Sequence record: PQ351811
From: Shigella phage SSG23
Length of the DNA: 64,000 bases
Direction: 5' to 3' (one strand)
Position 1 is the stretch's first letter, and each line of letters starts with the position of its first letter. Both the position numbers and the translations under genes were made by a program. The notes beneath the pieces were generated by a model that searched no databases, was not told the origin of the DNA, and worked only from the letters and a program-made list of their open reading frames with translations. Below are positions 25,635-62,911 of this stretch, piece by piece.

Positions 25635-25643
25635 AAATAGTTG

Positions 25644-25672
25644 TTGACAGGGGATCGGTGATCCCCTATAAT
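25644..25672 (+). promoter_or_regulatory. PeSL-type promoter TTGACA-[GGGGATCggtGATCCCC]-TATAAT
   Basis: 17-bp palindromic spacer with two GATC sites forms the whole spacer between consensus -35 and -10. Confidence 0.6.
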
Positions 25673-25703
25673 GAACTCATCAAGACAACGAAGGAGAATC
25701 AAA

Positions 25704-25859
25704 ATGAAACATACTCACAAATTAATGGTTAAATTTGAAGGTGCTAAGGGATATGAACGTTACGGTGTATTCTTCTCTGAGGATGATGCATGGGATGCTG
25801 GTTTGGCAACGTTCGCCGAACACAACAACATTGAAGACTTTACTGTAGAAGAAATTTAA
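25704..25859 (+). CDS. hypothetical protein
   Basis: 51-aa ORF from RBS-proximal ATG. Confidence 0.35.
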   Translation: MKHTHKLMVKFEGAKGYERYGVFFSEDDAWDAGLATFAEHNNIEDFTVEEI

Positions 25860-49751: not shown

Positions 49752-49820
49752 TAGTGAGGTGAATTAATCCTTCTTCTGGATACCTGATAAATAATGGTAT
49801 ACAGAAAAGAGGATTTATTC

Positions 49821-50468
49821 ATGAACTTACAAAAACTACACGACGCAATCATAGAAAAAGCGAAGATAAGAGGAACCGTTGAAGGATATAAGGAAACACA
49901 TCATATTTTACCGCGATCTATGGGTGGCGGTGATGAAGTCGATAACCTGATTGATTTGACAGCCAAAGAACATTTTGTGATTCATCACCTGCTAGCAAAA
50001 ATTCATGGTGGACCTATGGCGCAAGCATTTGGTATGATGTGTTTGGCAAAAAATGCTAAGACCAATAAAAGAGATTATGTTGTTTCGTCTAGGGTATATG
50101 AACAAGCTAGGGTACTGATATCTGAACAAAGAAAGGGTAAGCCTATGAAAGAAGAAACGCGAAGAAAGATTAGCGAATCTTCGAAAGGTGTATTGAAATC
50201 AGAAGAGACAAAAGCTAAAATGCGTAAACCAAAAACAAAGGAGCACGCGTTAAACATTTCAAAAGCTAGAATGGGAAGTAAAAATCCTATGTTTGGGAAA
50301 CCATCGCCAACTAAAGGAATACCACATAGCGAGGAAATGAGAAAGCTGATTGCACAAAGGACAAAGGAAGCAACAATGGCAGATCCTTGTCCGCATTGCG
50401 GTAAAATTACCAATAAAGGCAATGCTCTACGATGGCACTTTGATAACTGCAAAATGAGGAATATGTGA
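49821..50468 (+). CDS. HNH homing endonuclease (MobE-like; HNH + NUMOD3 repeats + C-terminal zinc finger)
   Basis: ETHHILPRSMGGGDEVDNLIDLTAKEHFVIH; repeated basic K-rich motifs; CPHCGK; inserted between nrdA and nrdB like T4 mobE. Confidence 0.75.
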   Translation: MNLQKLHDAIIEKAKIRGTVEGYKETHHILPRSMGGGDEVDNLIDLTAKEHFVIHHLLAKIHGGPMAQAFGMMCLAKNAKTNKRDYVVSSRVYEQARVLISEQRKGKPMKEETRRKISESSKGVLKSEETKAKMRKPKTKEHALNISKARMGSKNPMFGKPSPTKGIPHSEEMRKLIAQRTKEATMADPCPHCGKITNKGNALRWHFDNCKMRNM

Positions 50469-51635
50469 ATGGGAAATACGGTATTTAATCGTGAACATGT
50501 TGATATTATGAATGAACCGATGTTTCTGGGTAGCGGTTTAGGTATCGCTCGTTATGACATTCAGCGTCATCAAGTATTTGAAGAACTAATTGAAAAATCT
50601 CTGTCATTTTTCTGGCGTCCAGAAGAGATTTCACTTGCAACTGACCGCATTCAATATCTGAATATGGGCGATGTTGAAAAACGTTTCTTTACAGAAAACT
50701 TGAAGTATCAGACATTACTTGATTCTATTCAAGGTCGCGCACCATCCGCAGCATTTGGTCCAATTGTATCTGATCCGACTCTCGATACATGGTTGCAAAC
50801 ATGGACATTCAGCGAGACAATTCATAGCCGCAGTTATACTCACATTATGCGTAACTGTTTCATTGATCCGGCTAGTGAGTTTGACCAGATCATCGATAAC
50901 CCTGCTATCATGAAGCGAGCGGAATCTATCGGGCAATATTATGATGATGTTCTTTATTGGATTCGTAAGTATGAGAATGCAAAAGAAGATCTCCGCTATT
51001 GGGAAGAACGAGACGACCAGACAGCATTAGATGATGCAAGAAGAGTTTTTGAAGATACAAAACGAGATCTGATGGCGTCGATTTATCTGTGTGCACACTG
51101 CGTTAATGCACTGGAAGCAATCCGTTTTTATGTATCCTTTGCATGTACTTTCAGCTTTGCCGAACGTGGTTTACTGGAAGGTAACGCGAAGATCATGAAA
51201 TTTATTGCGCGTGATGAACAACTTCACTTAAAAGGTACACAATACATTATTCGTCAATGGCAAACGGGGGCTGACGGTGATGAGTGGAAACAGATTGCGG
51301 AAGAACTTGAAGACGAAGCAACGAAAATCTTTCTGGATGTTGTCGAGCAAGAAAAAGAATGGGTAGACCACCTATTCGCAATGGGGGCAATTCCTAACCT
51401 GTCACCGGAAATTCTGAAAACCTATGTAGAATACCTGGCAGATTCCCGTATGCGTGCTGCCGGACTGAAAAGCCCGTTTAGTGTTCGTCGTCATCCTTTA
51501 CCGTGGATGCGTAAGTGGTTAAACTCTGACGAAGTTCAAAACGCGGCGCAAGAAGTAGAGATCATGTATCTGGTATCTCAGGTTAATACCGATTTAACAG
51601 ACGACGACTACAACCGATTCGGGAAATATCTATGA
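50469..51635 (+). CDS. nrdB: ribonucleotide reductase small subunit NrdB
   Basis: 388 aa; VDIMNEPMFLGSGLGIARYDIQRHQVFEEL matches T4 NrdB N-terminus; uninterrupted (no intron). Confidence 0.9.
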   Translation: MGNTVFNREHVDIMNEPMFLGSGLGIARYDIQRHQVFEELIEKSLSFFWRPEEISLATDRIQYLNMGDVEKRFFTENLKYQTLLDSIQGRAPSAAFGPIVSDPTLDTWLQTWTFSETIHSRSYTHIMRNCFIDPASEFDQIIDNPAIMKRAESIGQYYDDVLYWIRKYENAKEDLRYWEERDDQTALDDARRVFEDTKRDLMASIYLCAHCVNALEAIRFYVSFACTFSFAERGLLEGNAKIMKFIARDEQLHLKGTQYIIRQWQTGADGDEWKQIAEELEDEATKIFLDVVEQEKEWVDHLFAMGAIPNLSPEILKTYVEYLADSRMRAAGLKSPFSVRRHPLPWMRKWLNSDEVQNAAQEVEIMYLVSQVNTDLTDDDYNRFGKYL

Positions 51636-52108
51636 TATATTTTGTCGATTTAGATTTTACGATCACAGATCCAACGCATCGACTAGCTAAGATGCCAACC
51701 GAAAATCTTGATAAAGTCGAGTCATGGATCGAATATAACAAGGCATGTGGGGGAGATTCCCCCATTTACGATGTAATTCGTGTTATCAATGCTCTTTCTG
51801 ACAACGGTCATTTGATTTACATCCTCACCGGACGAAGTTCACATGCTTACATAGAAACGGTGGAATGGCTGATCGCTAATGATGTGTGTTTCGATAAAAT
51901 CTTTATGAGAGGTCGCAATGATTCCCGTAAAGACTATCACATCAAATTAGAGGTAATTAAATCCTTTGATAAAGATGAAGTTGTCGGAGTCTTTGAGGAT
52001 AACCCGGAAGTGATTAAAGTTCTCAGAGAAAACGGCTATCGTGTCTTTGACGTAGGAAATCACAAAGACAAGACACGAGCGGATATTGCAAATCACGGTC
52101 ATGATTAA
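51632..52108 (+). CDS. HAD-superfamily phosphatase-like protein
   Basis: 158 aa; N-terminal DLDFT (DxDxT) motif and later GRSS... region. Confidence 0.45.
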   Translation: MIYFVDLDFTITDPTHRLAKMPTENLDKVESWIEYNKACGGDSPIYDVIRVINALSDNGHLIYILTGRSSHAYIETVEWLIANDVCFDKIFMRGRNDSRKDYHIKLEVIKSFDKDEVVGVFEDNPEVIKVLRENGYRVFDVGNHKDKTRADIANHGHD

Positions 52109-52118
52109 TGTTTGTTCA

Positions 52119-52145
52119 AAGTCGCCCATAGTGGCGACTTTTTTG
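52119..52145 (+). terminator. rho-independent terminator
   Basis: AAGTCGCC-catagt-GGCGACTT followed by T-run. Confidence 0.7.
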
Positions 52146-52155
52146 TTATTGGGTG

Positions 52156-52184
52156 TTGACAATCGGATCTTGCCATAGCATAAT
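52156..52184 (+). promoter_or_regulatory. sigma70-like early promoter TTGACA-17-CATAAT
   Basis: Leader acatcgaaacggaggaacat before ATG 52209. Confidence 0.55.
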
Positions 52185-52208
52185 ACGCACATCGAAACGG
52201 AGGAACAT

Positions 52209-52427
52209 ATGGAAACAGAAGAACAAGTCATTGCATATTTTCATCGTAAAAAGATGAAACTTAGAATCGAAAAACAGTACATCAATCACTATATTGACCG
52301 AGTCCACTTAACAAGTACACCTTACCTATTCCGGTTGATAAACCCTCGAAAACGGTGGGATAAGTTGGATAGAAACACAAAAATAATTGATAAACTCACC
52401 CAATGGTGGAATGAATACAACAAGTAA
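52209..52427 (+). CDS. hypothetical protein
   Basis: 72-aa ORF; stop lies in the A-run of the following PeSL. Confidence 0.4.
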   Translation: METEEQVIAYFHRKKMKLRIEKQYINHYIDRVHLTSTPYLFRLINPRKRWDKLDRNTKIIDKLTQWWNEYNK

Positions 52428-52478
52428 AAAAGTAGTTGACACTGAATAACGGGGGTAGTAATATACCCCCATCGAAAC
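52427..52478 (+). repeat. PeSL copy 1: 52-bp promoter/stem-loop cassette (TTGACA-17-TAATAT, palindrome GGGGGTA...TACCCCC)
   Basis: 52 bp identical to 52703-52754. Confidence 0.7.
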
Positions 52479-52492
52479 AAAGGAGAATCAAA

Positions 52493-52711
52493 ATGAAATT
52501 TATCTGCACCGACTCTATCAGCAAACACTTTGTAGTAGGCGAAGTATACGAATCTACTACCATTCGTCAGCGTGACCTGATGGGTCGCCTTTACAATCAG
52601 CCAGTATTCATTATTGGTGAAGAATTGTTCTACATTGAAAACCGTCCGTGGGTTGCTTTCAATAAACGAGGACGCAAGGTAGCAAAATTCGAACTTGTCA
52701 TTAAAAAGTAG
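52493..52711 (+). CDS. hypothetical protein flanked by identical PeSLs
   Basis: 72-aa ORF from RBS-proximal ATG; stop TAG inside second PeSL copy. Confidence 0.45.
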   Translation: MKFICTDSISKHFVVGEVYESTTIRQRDLMGRLYNQPVFIIGEELFYIENRPWVAFNKRGRKVAKFELVIKK

Positions 52712-52754
52712 TTGACACTGAATAACGGGGGTAGTAATATACCCCCATCGAAAC
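52703..52754 (+). repeat. PeSL copy 2: 52-bp promoter/stem-loop cassette
   Basis: 52-bp exact direct repeat of 52427-52478. Confidence 0.7.
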
Positions 52755-52781
52755 GAAACTAACTTACTAAGGAGTATCAAG

Positions 52782-53180
52782 ATGATTAAATTTCAAACTC
52801 GCAAAGACGTTCTGGACTTCGTTAAAGTTTTCGGTTACGCTGCATTGCAACATGCAATGGACAAAATGACCATCACCCCAGATCAGACTATGCTGATCCG
52901 TATGGTTAAAGCAACCGCCTACAAAAACGACATTACCCTCTCAGAAATCAACGACGGTAATACTGTCCGCGAGGTGATTGTTTCTTTCGAATCACCGAAA
53001 ATTGGCGGTTTTCATACCACGATGTTAGGCGAAATCACTGTCACTGTATACGGGCAAGGTGGCGGAGTGTTCACCGTAAAAGAAGCGATGGAAAACGGGA
53101 CACTGAACAAAGAAAAACTGGAATTTGTCCTGAAAATCATCAAGGAGCGTAACGAAGCTCGCGATATTCTGGAAAGTTAA
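52782..53180 (+). CDS. hypothetical protein
   Basis: 132-aa ORF. Confidence 0.4.
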   Translation: MIKFQTRKDVLDFVKVFGYAALQHAMDKMTITPDQTMLIRMVKATAYKNDITLSEINDGNTVREVIVSFESPKIGGFHTTMLGEITVTVYGQGGGVFTVKEAMENGTLNKEKLEFVLKIIKERNEARDILES

Positions 53181-53230
53181 TAAGGTGGGCGGGAGAAATC
53201 CCGCCTTTGTTGTGACGTGAGGAAAGGATA

Positions 53231-53692
53231 ATGATTAATGAGCTAATAGAAAACTATGGATTCGTTAAATATTCATGTTTAGAGTGTAAAGATGGTGATG
53301 TGATTCTACCGCCTCAGAAGAACCGTTTAAATGTTCTTTACGCTATTGTGGTTGATGATGAACTGGTATATATTGGTCAGACTGTTAATCTAAGAAAGCG
53401 GATCAATTATTACCGGACTAGCATTAACAGACAGACACCAACGGCGGATACTCGCAAGAGTAAGAATATTCATAAGGCGCTAGAGGAAGGGAAGACAGTA
53501 ACATTCTATTACCGCCAGTGCTTTGAGTTGTACATCGAGAATCCAACGGGTAAGGATATTATAAGCACTGCCGATATCGAAGAACCTGTTTTGATCACCA
53601 AATTTAAACCAGAATGGAACACAAATTATGTCAACAAAAGAAAACAACAAAAAAGTTTTAGCATTGTTCAAAAATCTGATGACACTATGTGA
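53231..53692 (+). CDS. denA: endonuclease II (DenA; GIY-YIG family)
   Basis: YGFVKY..., NVLYAIVVDDELVYIGQTVNLRKRINYYRTSINR, ARQCF match T4 DenA; about 17 aa longer at C-terminus. Confidence 0.85.
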   Translation: MINELIENYGFVKYSCLECKDGDVILPPQKNRLNVLYAIVVDDELVYIGQTVNLRKRINYYRTSINRQTPTADTRKSKNIHKALEEGKTVTFYYRQCFELYIENPTGKDIISTADIEEPVLITKFKPEWNTNYVNKRKQQKSFSIVQKSDDTM

Positions 53693-54797
53693 CGGATCTG
53701 ATACGTTCTATTACAAAGATGAAATTACGGCAATGCAAACCCGTATGCGCATTTTTAGTTATCTGTACTTGAGCAAACCTGAAATGTGGAATAAACCAGA
53801 TGCGTTAGAGTGTCGCGGGATCATGTTTGAAATCGATGATAAAGACCGACCAGTCCGCATTGCATCTCGTCCTATGGAGAAGTTTTTTAATTTAGGCGAG
53901 AATGACCGCGCTCGCTTTAAGCCGGAAGAGGTGGAAATGGTCATGGACAAAATGGACGGTAGTCTAGTAAGCACATACATTGATAACGGCTATGTTCAGT
54001 TGAAGTCTAAAGCGGCCTTGTACTCAAGCCAGGCAGAGAGAGCAAACGGTCTTCTGTATTCAGAGAAGTATGCGGAACTACGTGCTAAGATCGCCGATAT
54101 TGGATCTGATTATACTTTCAACTTTGAATATACAGCACCAAGCAACCGAATTGTTGTAGAATACAACGAACCGTCGCTAACACTTCTGAATGTACGCCAT
54201 AACGTCACAGGAGAGTATGTACCGCATCAAATTCTATTCGCCGATGCAATCCTGCGTCCTCATCTGGTAAATGCGTTACAGGTTGATTCAGCGCGGTTTA
54301 GCAATATTCTTGATGAAGTTCGGACCGCAGAAGGTATCGAGGGAATTGTTGCACGAACCAAAGACGGTCAGATGTTCAAGGTGAAAAGTGAATGGTATAT
54401 TGGTGTGCATAACATTAAAAACACATCGATGTTTCCTAATAACCTGATCTACTATGTCGTAGAAAGCGAAACCGATGATTTGCGTGCTGCATATGAAGGT
54501 GAACCGGAAGCACTGGAACGAATCGAGCTATTCGAGGAAGCATTCAGGTCTATTCTTCGCAATGCCTTCACGACAGCAACAGAATTTTATAACGCACACG
54601 CGGGAGAAGACAGAAAGACATATGCATCCAATGCGACTATCGAATCACGTAAACATGGTGATGCACAAGCATATATTTTCATGTGTCTGATGATTGCATT
54701 TGATGGTCTTGATTATGACCGTATTCTGGCTTCAATGAAAACTTACTATCTACGGAATTATAAGAAACTGATTCCGGCTGATAAGATTGATTGGTAA
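53628..54797 (+). CDS. 63: RNA ligase 1 (gp63)
   Basis: DALECRGIMFE, PVRIASRPMEKFFNL, KMDGSLVSTY (ligase lysine motif), LLNVR.NVTGEY, KLIPADKIDW-type end match T4 Rnl1; start overlaps denA 3' end. Confidence 0.9.
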   Translation: MSTKENNKKVLALFKNLMTLCDGSDTFYYKDEITAMQTRMRIFSYLYLSKPEMWNKPDALECRGIMFEIDDKDRPVRIASRPMEKFFNLGENDRARFKPEEVEMVMDKMDGSLVSTYIDNGYVQLKSKAALYSSQAERANGLLYSEKYAELRAKIADIGSDYTFNFEYTAPSNRIVVEYNEPSLTLLNVRHNVTGEYVPHQILFADAILRPHLVNALQVDSARFSNILDEVRTAEGIEGIVARTKDGQMFKVKSEWYIGVHNIKNTSMFPNNLIYYVVESETDDLRAAYEGEPEALERIELFEEAFRSILRNAFTTATEFYNAHAGEDRKTYASNATIESRKHGDAQAYIFMCLMIAFDGLDYDRILASMKTYYLRNYKKLIPADKIDW

Positions 54798-60561: not shown

Positions 60562-60574
60562 TTCAAAAAAGTTG

Positions 60575-60603
60575 TTGACAGGGGATCGCCGATCCCCTAT
60601 ACT
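60575..60603 (+). promoter_or_regulatory. PeSL-type promoter TTGACA-[GGGGATCgccGATCCCC]-TATACT
   Basis: Palindromic 17-bp spacer with two GATC sites. Confidence 0.6.
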
Positions 60604-60637
60604 GCACACATACCGAAACGAACTAGGAGAATCAATT

Positions 60638-60817
60638 ATGAACTTCAACGAAATCATCGCTAAAATCCGCTACAACGAAGAAACCATTGAACTGATGCAA
60701 AACAATATCACCAATGGTTATATGATTGCAGCGTCACAAGAAATCATTGATTTGACAGTAGCAGAAAATGCTCAGTTGAAACATCAACTTTCAACGGCTG
60801 GCGTGATTGTTATGTAA
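60638..60817 (+). CDS. hypothetical protein
   Basis: 59-aa ORF from RBS-proximal ATG. Confidence 0.4.
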   Translation: MNFNEIIAKIRYNEETIELMQNNITNGYMIAASQEIIDLTVAENAQLKHQLSTAGVIVM

Positions 60818-61432: not shown

Positions 61433-61726
61433 ATGGAACATACTAATTTGTTTGTAGCCGAACCTTTCGTTGAAGGCAATAAAAATCTGGCTAATACCGT
61501 TATTCTTTATGAAGATTGGATCTTTTACATCGACGAGCATTTAGATGTATTTTGTCGCACAGATAAAAGCGACCAATTTCCAATTGAAAAAAATCGAACA
61601 TCAAATCATTGGTACGGCGGGAATGACGAAACCGACCTAGCTATTGTTCTCGAATCAGGCGTAGAATCTGAACATGCCAATGAAGTGGCAGACAAATTTA
61701 TGAAATACGCATATAAAGCATTATAA
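61433..61726 (+). CDS. hypothetical protein
   Basis: 97-aa ORF from RBS-proximal ATG. Confidence 0.4.
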   Translation: MEHTNLFVAEPFVEGNKNLANTVILYEDWIFYIDEHLDVFCRTDKSDQFPIEKNRTSNHWYGGNDETDLAIVLESGVESEHANEVADKFMKYAYKAL

Positions 61727-61731
61727 AGTTG

Positions 61732-61760
61732 TTGACAGGGGATCACAGATCCCCTATAAT
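61732..61760 (+). promoter_or_regulatory. PeSL-type promoter TTGACA-[GGGGATCacaGATCCCC]-TATAAT
   Basis: Palindromic spacer 61738-61754 with two GATC sites. Confidence 0.6.
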
Positions 61761-61794
61761 GCACACATACCAACGAGATATAGGAGAATCAAAA

Positions 61795-61962
61795 ATGTTC
61801 CAGACTAAAGAAGAATGTGAAGCATACATTGTAGCAAACCACGGTGAAGACTACCTGAAATTCGATATCGTAGTAGCACAGAAGATCACCGGAATGGTTG
61901 CAAAATATCTGGGTGTTAAAGAAGGTTACTATCCGAGCAACGCACCAGAAATTAACAAATAA
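61795..61962 (+). CDS. hypothetical protein
   Basis: 55-aa ORF from RBS-proximal ATG. Confidence 0.35.
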   Translation: MFQTKEECEAYIVANHGEDYLKFDIVVAQKITGMVAKYLGVKEGYYPSNAPEINK

Positions 61963-62218: not shown

Positions 62219-62497
62219 ATGATGCGAATTACTGCAACACTGGATAAGACACACAAAGAAAGATTTTTCGGTATGATCTTAAAAACGCCGATTTTCGATA
62301 ATTACCTTTATGTTGACTATGAAGGCCATATTAGCTATAAATGTAAAAATGATATTCGTGATTCCTTTGGTGATAAATCACAAGCTGATATTCATGACCA
62401 CTGGTGGACCTTCGACGAACCTTTACGGATTATCGCAGTTGATGTAAAAACAATAAAAGAAGCTGATAAGGTAGTTAACGATTATGAGCAAATTTAA
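62219..62497 (+). CDS. hypothetical protein, member of HxHW...(I/L)AVDV paralog family
   Basis: 92 aa; ...IHDHWWTFDEPLRIIAVDV... Confidence 0.45.
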   Translation: MMRITATLDKTHKERFFGMILKTPIFDNYLYVDYEGHISYKCKNDIRDSFGDKSQADIHDHWWTFDEPLRIIAVDVKTIKEADKVVNDYEQI

Positions 62498-62693
62498 AGA
62501 CTACAAAGCATATCAACAGATCCTGCGAGTATATGACGCGGAGTTCGCCGAAAAGATGATGGAAGATGCATCAAAATGCCCGTCCTTTTCTGGAAACAAG
62601 AATCATTATTCGACCGGGATTGTATCGTGGAAAGAAACCGCATATACTAAACAATGGATAGATGTGTTTTCAAAAACTCTTGAATGGTGTTAA
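62484..62693 (+). CDS. hypothetical protein (MSKFKDY tandem paralog 1)
   Basis: 69 aa. Confidence 0.4.
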   Translation: MSKFKDYKAYQQILRVYDAEFAEKMMEDASKCPSFSGNKNHYSTGIVSWKETAYTKQWIDVFSKTLEWC

Positions 62694-62695
62694 TT

Positions 62696-62911
62696 ATGAG
62701 CAAATTTAAAGATTATCGAGCATATAAAGCGATCTGCGATATATTCGATGAAAAGACCGCTCATGCAATGATGGAAGATGCAGAACAATATGAATCATTC
62801 GTCAATTCCAAAGATTGCGCAGTAAACGGGATTGTGTGTTGGAAAGATACAAAGTATGAAGAAAAATGGATTACCGTGTATTACGGAGAACTAGAATATG
62901 AAATTAACTAA
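62696..62911 (+). CDS. hypothetical protein (MSKFKDY tandem paralog 2)
   Basis: 71 aa. Confidence 0.4.
   Translation: MSKFKDYRAYKAICDIFDEKTAHAMMEDAEQYESFVNSKDCAVNGIVCWKDTKYEEKWITVYYGELEYEIN

Follow-up and report, generated by a model that had tools for sequence, protein, structure and literature searches.

The window analysed here, a stretch of 64,000 nucleotides, carries a small phage gene, ORF227, held between two identical 52-bp copies of a promoter-early stem-loop (PeSL). We consider it probable that the PeSLs provide recombination homology as well as early promoters, that ORF227 is an old resident of its site, and that the identity of the two flanking copies is the extreme of patchwise exchange between PeSLs. 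The locus belongs to an RB49-like Krischvirus and occupies the hyperplastic region that runs from nrdB/PNK-phosphatase to denA: this region is 100% identical to that of Shigella phage SFHK24 (PQ351812.1), and the 57 other records that match it at 92-98% are all from Krischvirus (RB49, phi1, JSE, GEC-3S, ECD7 and others), the genus in which PeSLs were first defined (Arbiol 2010, PMC2839356).

Table 1 Features of the small-cassette array and its neighbours, in window coordinates
Feature	Position	Strand	Description
Homing-endonuclease-like ORF	49794-50468	+	First in the local gene order, 5' of nrdB
nrdB	50469-51635
PNK-phosphatase-like gene	51632-52108
Intrinsic terminator	52118..52141	+	Canonical, 9-bp stem and T-run; 3' of the PNK-phosphatase-like gene
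Sigma-70-type promoter	52156..52184	+	TTGACA, 17-bp spacer, CATAAT; predicted to drive the ORF228 homologue
ORF228 homologue	52209..52427	+	72 aa; PHROG 18672 (function unknown)
PeSL copy 1 (L copy)	52427..52478	+
Copy 1, A-tract	52427-52431
Copy 1, -35 box	52436-52441		TTGACA
Copy 1, stem-loop	52451-52470
Copy 1, -10 box	52459-52464		TAATAT
SD after copy 1	52480-52485		AAGGAG
ORF227 homologue	52493..52711	+	72 aa, ATG start at 52493; PHROG 14957 (function unknown)
PeSL copy 2 (R copy)	52703..52754	+
Copy 2, A-tract	from 52703
Copy 2, -35 box	52712-52717		TTGACA
Copy 2, stem-loop	52727-52746
Copy 2, -10 box	52735-52740		TAATAT
SD after copy 2	52769-52774		AAGGAG
ORF225 homologue	52782..53180	+	132 aa, ATG at 52782, behind PeSL copy 2; PHROG 10173 (function unknown)
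Intrinsic terminator	53187..53206	+	Canonical, 8-bp stem with 6 G-C pairs and T-rich tail
denA, then rnlA			3' of the terminator at 53187..53206

The window holds exactly two copies of the 52-mer AAAAAGTAGTTGACACTGAATAACGGGGGTAGTAATATACCCCCATCGAAAC, both on the + strand and with 0 mismatches, and 100 dinucleotide-preserving shuffles yielded 0 matches to it. The copies are spaced 276 bp apart; their identity ends on the left at an A/T mismatch (52426/52702) and reaches 55 nt if one mismatch is allowed. Copy 1 starts at the final base of the TAA stop codon of the ORF228 homologue, and copy 2 contains the last two codons and the TAG stop of the ORF227 homologue (52703-52711). Thus, the first-pass annotation, which had described an exact 52-bp direct repeat bracketing one 72-aa ORF whose stop codon lies within the second copy, is correct in each of these respects. 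The repeat family has nine members in the 64-kb window, and this is its sole identical pair, the remaining seven members being just 64-82% identical to the 52-mer. Elsewhere in the window, three copies (25637-25709, 60568-60640 and 61725-61797) are 66-85% identical over 73 nt, with the ribosome-binding site and ATG included. Two 42-nt stretches located 212 nt apart (62481-62522 and 62693-62734) are 83% identical, each beginning with ATGAGCAAATTTAAAGA, and resemble, by their sequence, the starts of two small paralogous ORFs in tandem; this part of the window is rich in PeSLs (at 60568, 61725 and 61957).

The same annotation had called the repeats PeSLs, and this assignment is borne out: judged by all the sequence-defined features of the class, which are present here in the genus where PeSLs were described, both 52-bp copies are promoter-early stem-loops. 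Each begins in an AT-rich tract with a stop codon, TAAAAAAGTAG in copy 1 (stop codon at 52425-52427) and ATTAAAAAGTAG in copy 2 (stop codon at 52709-52711). Each contains a sigma-70 promoter, with TTGACA and TAATAT separated by a 17-bp spacer, that scores 10/12 in a promoter scan. A 7-bp polyG...polyC stem, GGGGGTA/TACCCCC, with a 6-nt loop (predicted fold -14 kcal/mol, z = -2.8) overlaps the -10 box in both copies, as it does in one of the two most frequent classes of PeSL (PMC2839356). The Shine-Dalgarno sequence AAGGAG follows, 7 nt ahead of the ATG of each downstream gene. The setting is that of a hyperplastic region of ORFans and indels in Krischvirus: the ORFs match no Pfam family and only PHROGs without known function, and ORF226, ORF227 and ORF228 are each variably present among the relatives, with breakpoints inside PeSLs.

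The window has 23 sites with the pattern TTGACA-N17-TANNNT, where 1.1 would be expected; 22 of these sites lie on the + strand. The pairs of the stem covary across the family (GGGGG/CCCCC and GGGAG/CTCCC, with G-T intermediates); at stem position 28/41, a small sample comprises A-T in six sequences, G-C in two and G-T in two, which provides modest support for a conserved stem. Neither stem-loop is followed by a T-run, so these are not canonical intrinsic terminators, and the canonical terminators of the array are the two flanking ones only. Rfam covariance models searched over 51500-53800 gave no family that matches the element; the sole hit, NsiR4, is at chance level (E = 0.43) and lies outside the repeat. 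Several records carry altered elements. In GEC-3S (1036-1041 of its record), the -35 box of the L PeSL reads TTTACA; in PHB13 (about 1779-1800 of its record), the AAAAGTA tract of the L PeSL is duplicated; and the G-runs and C-runs of the stem range from 4 to 7 among records. These differences may reflect slippage or homopolymer sequencing errors.

The array is delimited by two terminators that are annotated in the same places in GEC-3S, G2494 and Makalu_003, one at its upstream limit and one that closes it ahead of denA. The promoter in front of the ORF228 homologue is related to the PeSLs and has no G/C stem-loop. The annotations of SFHK24, UPWr_E1 and the FL phages include a 30-aa 'hypothetical protein' at 52086-52178 (+); because it overlaps both the upstream terminator hairpin and the -35 box of this promoter, it is most likely not a real gene. 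Further upstream, the 224-aa ORF stops exactly at the start of nrdB and contains a NUMOD3 motif (Pfam E = 3.7e-9) together with an HNH-like HH...N...HH stretch, and probably encodes a free-standing homing endonuclease. In T4, mobE occupies the corresponding position, between nrdA and nrdB. The divergent Krischvirus-like metagenome contigs L038-L040, from which ORF228 is missing, carry a group I intron that splits nrdB into 235-aa and 84-aa pieces (220-441 of L038; Rfam RF00028, 52 bits, E = 6e-12), whereas nrdB is uninterrupted in the window. On the other side of the array, denA encodes 84 aa in ELT3 (1721-1975 of its record) and 143 aa in JSE (1837-2268 of its record) compared with 153 aa elsewhere, which points either to a genuine loss of endonuclease II or to a frameshift introduced by sequencing.

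ORF227 is a real, selected, non-essential gene confined to Krischvirus. Of the 58 Krischvirus records, 56 carry a single copy at the same site, with a nucleotide identity of 95.7-100%, and the gene also occurs in 13 additional contigs from metagenomes or assemblies; AV108 and ELT3 are the only two of the 58 records that lack it. Differences from the window copy number 1-16 in 219 nt, similar to those in ORF228 and ORF225 of the same genomes. In a set of 37 sequences, third codon positions account for 27 of the 33 variable sites and the protein is nearly unchanged, which indicates purifying selection, whereas the two phages without the gene indicate that it is dispensable. Homologues of ORF227 form one cluster among 5.8 billion proteins; a Pfam search of the protein gave no match, PHROG 14957 was its sole PHROG match, and an AlphaFold2 model made without an alignment has a mean pLDDT of 53.7. 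We also considered whether ORF227 and ORF228, at 72 aa each, are paralogues that emerged by tandem duplication, and rejected this possibility because BLASTP gives no alignment between them.

The comparison with related genomes proposed in the first-pass annotation was carried out on the interval between the PNK-phosphatase-like gene and denA in the 58 Krischvirus records. The order ORF228-ORF227-ORF225 is found in 12 records that represent 10 phages (the window, ECD7, Skers, Brandy, UPWr_E1, JK32, G2494, Whisky, JSE and phiS), and ORF228-ORF227-ORF226-ORF225 in about 41 records, including RB49, phi1 and GEC-3S. About 41 records contain ORF226 and 12 lack it. In three records (011D4, E26 and ELT4), other small ORFs replace ORF228 ahead of ORF227-ORF226-ORF225, although for ELT4, unlike 011D4 and E26, this architecture was deduced from matching query coverage. 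The divergent metagenomic lineage L038-L040 has ORF227-ORF225, with ORF228 absent. Finally, AV108 and ELT3 (2 records) have ORF228-ORF226-ORF225, with one PeSL between ORF228 and ORF226.

The alignment gaps in AV108 (287 nt) and ELT3 (281 nt) each correspond to one PeSL plus ORF227, with gap ends that fall inside the flanking PeSLs, so that a single hybrid PeSL is left at the junction. These natural deletion variants support the earlier suggestion that the cassette can be excised by recombination between PeSLs. The two junctions differ. In ELT3, the switch from L-type to R-type sequence can lie anywhere in the shared core, and the remaining PeSL holds the exact 52-mer; in AV108, the L-type GAAACGAAACA is kept and the crossover lies in the 13-nt AAGGAGAATCAAA just 5' of the ATG of ORF226. 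Because the junctions differ and, judging by their flanking genes, the two phages are not each other's nearest relatives, we count what appear to be two independent losses of ORF227, or at least two independent final events; one deletion followed by patch exchange could, in principle, account for both junctions. The loss of ORF226 is similarly heterogeneous: phiS has a crossover of its own, at AGTTGACAGCAT, and the other ORF228-ORF227-ORF225 phages share a different junction. As far as can be read from these alignments, each small cassette of the array is individually gained and lost at PeSL boundaries, as the PeSL gene-shuffling model predicts (PMC2839356). In AV108, the PeSL between ORF226 and ORF225 (about 1195-1264 of its record) is itself rearranged, AGTTGGGGAGTAGTAAGATACTTAGTAAGATACTCCC; its -35 box is destroyed and the segment AGTAAGATACT occurs in duplicate, a scar suggestive of slippage or recombination within the stem-loop.

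The product expected from recombination between the two identical PeSLs, ORF228-PeSL-ORF225, was not seen in the 58 records or the 13 contigs. Scans of IMG/VR for this junction and for further ORF228/ORF226 junctions returned 0 hits each, in a collection with so little Krischvirus (1 contig for the control, the normal junction) that the scans have no power.

We compared the L (upstream) and R (downstream) PeSLs of ORF227 in 33 genomes. Because a GAAAC indel of 5 nt in the window disturbs a search by L junctions, the L alleles were taken from direct alignment of the loci. In 30 of the 33 genomes, the longest stretch of exact L/R identity measures 12-36 nt, for example, 16 nt in RB49, 32 nt in KMB43 and the FL phages, and 36 nt in Skers and G2494. 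The pair is identical in the other three, over 52 nt in both SFHK24 and L033, a metagenome scaffold, and over 59 nt in Brandy, where both copies contain an unusual run of six C. The differences between L and R come in blocks rather than as scattered point changes: a spacer block reads ctgaataac versus gcatgaaac, gcctgaaac or caacaaaac, and a block spanning the -10 box and the 3' arm reads taagatactccc versus taatataccccc. All combinations of these blocks occur among the genomes in a mosaic pattern. About 12 phages have an R copy with the L-type spacer, and Skers, G2494, JK32 and UPWr_E1 have an L copy with the R-type 3' block. Skers and G2494 have the exact 52-mer as their L copy alone, E26 and Makalu_003 have it as their R copy alone, and in ELT3 it is the one PeSL left. 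The spacer of the 52-mer is not a functional requirement, since the window's other PeSLs have unrelated ones.

The first-pass annotation had taken the identity of the copies as the sign of a recent insertion, and this part of it does not hold up: ORF227 occupies the site in nearly all records with a divergence like that of its flanks, and the 52-mer also occurs as a lone L, R or sole PeSL in other phages. Because the allele exists elsewhere and the gene is a long-standing resident, identity reflects the exchange or retention of PeSL sequence and not the age of the gene. From the sequences compared, ORF227 looks like an old, conserved, non-essential resident, and its recent insertion is wrong or at least unsupported. 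The simplest reading of the identity appears to be repeated short-patch exchange between neighbouring PeSLs and subsequent allele shuffling, with SFHK24 as a chance combination of fully matching alleles. The gene-by-gene mosaicism among the relatives is strong, which fits shuffling of alleles between co-infecting phages; gene conversion between PeSLs is a candidate mechanism.

A more specific form of insertion deserves separate consideration, namely, that the lineage lost ORF227, kept one PeSL and regained the gene from a mini-circle with a matching PeSL allele. Integration of such a circle by a single crossover automatically yields two identical flanking copies; in RB49/phi1, ORF192 and ORF210 are known to occur in mini-circles that combine a single ORFan with a single PeSL (PMC2839356), the single PeSL of ELT3 is the exact 52-mer, and between SFHK24 and L033 the L-ORF227-R module differs by 1 nt, located in the ORF, compared with 8-9 nt in the flanking genes. 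We nevertheless give this scenario little chance. The recipient order that it requires, ORF228-PeSL-ORF225, is the one missing from all the records and contigs (and from IMG/VR, which holds almost no Krischvirus), nearly all relatives carry ORF227 at the site, and the 32-nt and 36-nt intermediates fit stepwise patch exchange; moreover, a chimeric circle that integrates reciprocally exchanges patches between the copies and does not homogenise them unless the circle and its target already match. Retention of an ancestral duplicate, with L and R identical since the array was built and substitutions not yet accumulated, would dispense with conversion altogether. Given a genus-wide divergence of roughly 2-5%, we estimate that merely ~2-3 substitutions are expected in the 104 nt (2 x 52), and the ctgaata-type spacer is also present in the R copy of the divergent L038-L040 lineage. 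This reading, too, seems improbable when set against the blockwise, mosaic L/R differences elsewhere (5 changes within 9 nt), the derived six-C run common to both Brandy copies, and the restriction of identical copies to three of 33 genomes.

Functional convergence, that is, selection for one optimal strong promoter and stem-loop that holds both copies identical, could draw on the fact that both copies are placed to drive early genes and on the conservation of the -35 box, -10 box and stem across the family. However, the identity extends over the spacer, the A-tract and the post-stem ATCGAAAC, all freely variable in the other seven members of the family, and non-identical L and R copies suffice in most relatives, which makes convergence very improbable. 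Even less credit is due to an artefact in which assembly or polishing copied one PeSL onto the other. It has no direct support, apart from the variation of G/C homopolymer runs among records that could partly be sequencing error, and it is at odds with a 52-nt repeat that is shorter than typical reads and has unique sequence on both sides, as well as with identical pairs in independent assemblies, Brandy (MZ504876) and L033. There is also a more ambitious reading that we regard as unlikely, albeit less so than any of these: either neighbouring PeSLs undergo concerted evolution via ectopic gene conversion that from time to time renders them identical, with identity raising the rate at which the enclosed gene is excised and circularised, or the identical pair is the first natural footprint of mini-circle re-integration. 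Neither phenomenon is described in the available portions of PMC2839356 and PMC4122927. If concerted evolution does occur, PeSL arrays would cycle between a 'locked' state, with 12-36 nt shared, and a 'mobile' state, with 52-59 nt shared.

In the explanation that we favour, the locus would operate as follows. The two PeSLs would head two consecutive single-gene early transcription units, ORF227 and ORF225, with host sigma-70 RNA polymerase starting ~7 nt past each TAATAT, near 52471 and 52747, as deduced from Arbiol 2010 and from the anatomy of the elements. With its position upstream of the start, the G5/C5 stem-loop would form only in read-through transcripts from the preceding promoter; the hairpin could act on read-through only, because transcripts that start ~7 nt past the -10 box do not include it. 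It might attenuate such transcripts, a role that has been proposed for PeSL stem-loops and demonstrated for a different PeSL (PMC2839356), although attenuation by the two stem-loops described here is doubtful because they have no T-run. Promoter and terminator/attenuator activity has been assayed for PeSL193/192, 206/205 and 211/210 (PMC2839356), and it is from these assays, along with the sequence, that we infer promoter and attenuator activity for the PeSLs described here.

As the comparison of genomes shows, the PeSLs also serve as portable homology for the T4-type recombination system of the phage itself. For T4-type recombination, ~50 bp or less of homology is sufficient (Singer 1982, via PMC2839356), so a perfect 52-bp repeat with a spacing of 276 bp is a good substrate. 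Exchange between the two copies would remove a 276-bp unit, ORF227 plus one PeSL, and release it as a circle, and after the deletion, ORF228 and ORF225 would remain intact and promoter-driven. Pairs of PeSLs in RB49/phi1 produce mini-circles of ~400-1500 bp, the smallest of which (ORF210) is present at roughly 1 per 10^5 virions (PMC2839356). The patchwise exchange itself would be ectopic gene conversion, or the shuffling of already converted alleles between co-infecting phages. If this explanation is true, the phage would lose or circularise the cassette more readily than its relatives that share 12-36 nt, and stocks of SFHK24 are predicted to contain the 276-bp circle and the ORF228-PeSL-ORF225 deletion variant more commonly than stocks of those relatives.

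The closest counterparts of this locus are the ORFan192 and ORFan210 cassettes of RB49/phi1 (PMC2839356), which belong to the same genus. Their PeSLs have the same anatomy (A-rich tract with a stop, sigma-70 consensus, polyG/polyC stem-loop over the -10 box, SD and ATG), and the cassettes likewise consist of a single small ORFan between two PeSLs, show presence/absence polymorphism and leave a chimeric PeSL at the junction. In RB49, 51 PeSLs have been catalogued (Arbiol 2010, PMC2839356); the ORF225-228 locus, from nrdB to denA, is not discussed there, although both RB49 and phi1 carry all four ORFs. The two PeSLs around ORF227 in the window differ from the RB49 copies at the same site in their 52 nt of identity as opposed to 16 nt. 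In other genera, the T4/PST and KVP40/nt-1 indels similarly involve promoter-terminator motifs as exchange points in hyperplastic regions, with different PeSL consensus sequences (Comeau 2014, PMC4122927).

Outside this family of phages, integron cassettes are alike in being single-gene modules with repeated recombination sites at their ends and a circular excised intermediate, an analogy drawn by Arbiol et al. themselves (PMC2839356). Integron cassettes depend on an integrase and attC, whereas PeSL cassettes have their own promoter and rely on general homologous recombination; with its own promoter and with nrdB, PNK-phosphatase, denA and rnlA, and no integrase, as neighbours, the ORF227 cassette is not an integron cassette. 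Neither is it a transposon, given that it has no recombinase and no terminal inverted repeats. The lambdoid 'morons' (Hendrix 2000, via PMC2839356) are also solitary accessory genes with their own promoter and terminator, but their flanking signals are not thought to mediate mobility, whereas those of PeSL cassettes are a recombination substrate (PMC2839356).

The locus described here is a further case of the gene-shuffling system reported in 2010 from the same genus, and not a new kind of element. What it adds is a natural deletion series at ORF227 and evidence for homogenisation of adjacent PeSLs. One cassette is found in three states: complete between divergent PeSLs, complete between perfectly identical ones, or lost, in which case either of two distinct hybrid junctions marks the site. 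Each of the three adjacent cassettes varies on its own as well, and together they provide a clean natural example for the PeSL modular-shuffling model. With 52 nt in SFHK24, 36 nt in Skers and 16 nt in RB49, these phages form a series of identity lengths that may bear on gene loss in T4-type phages.
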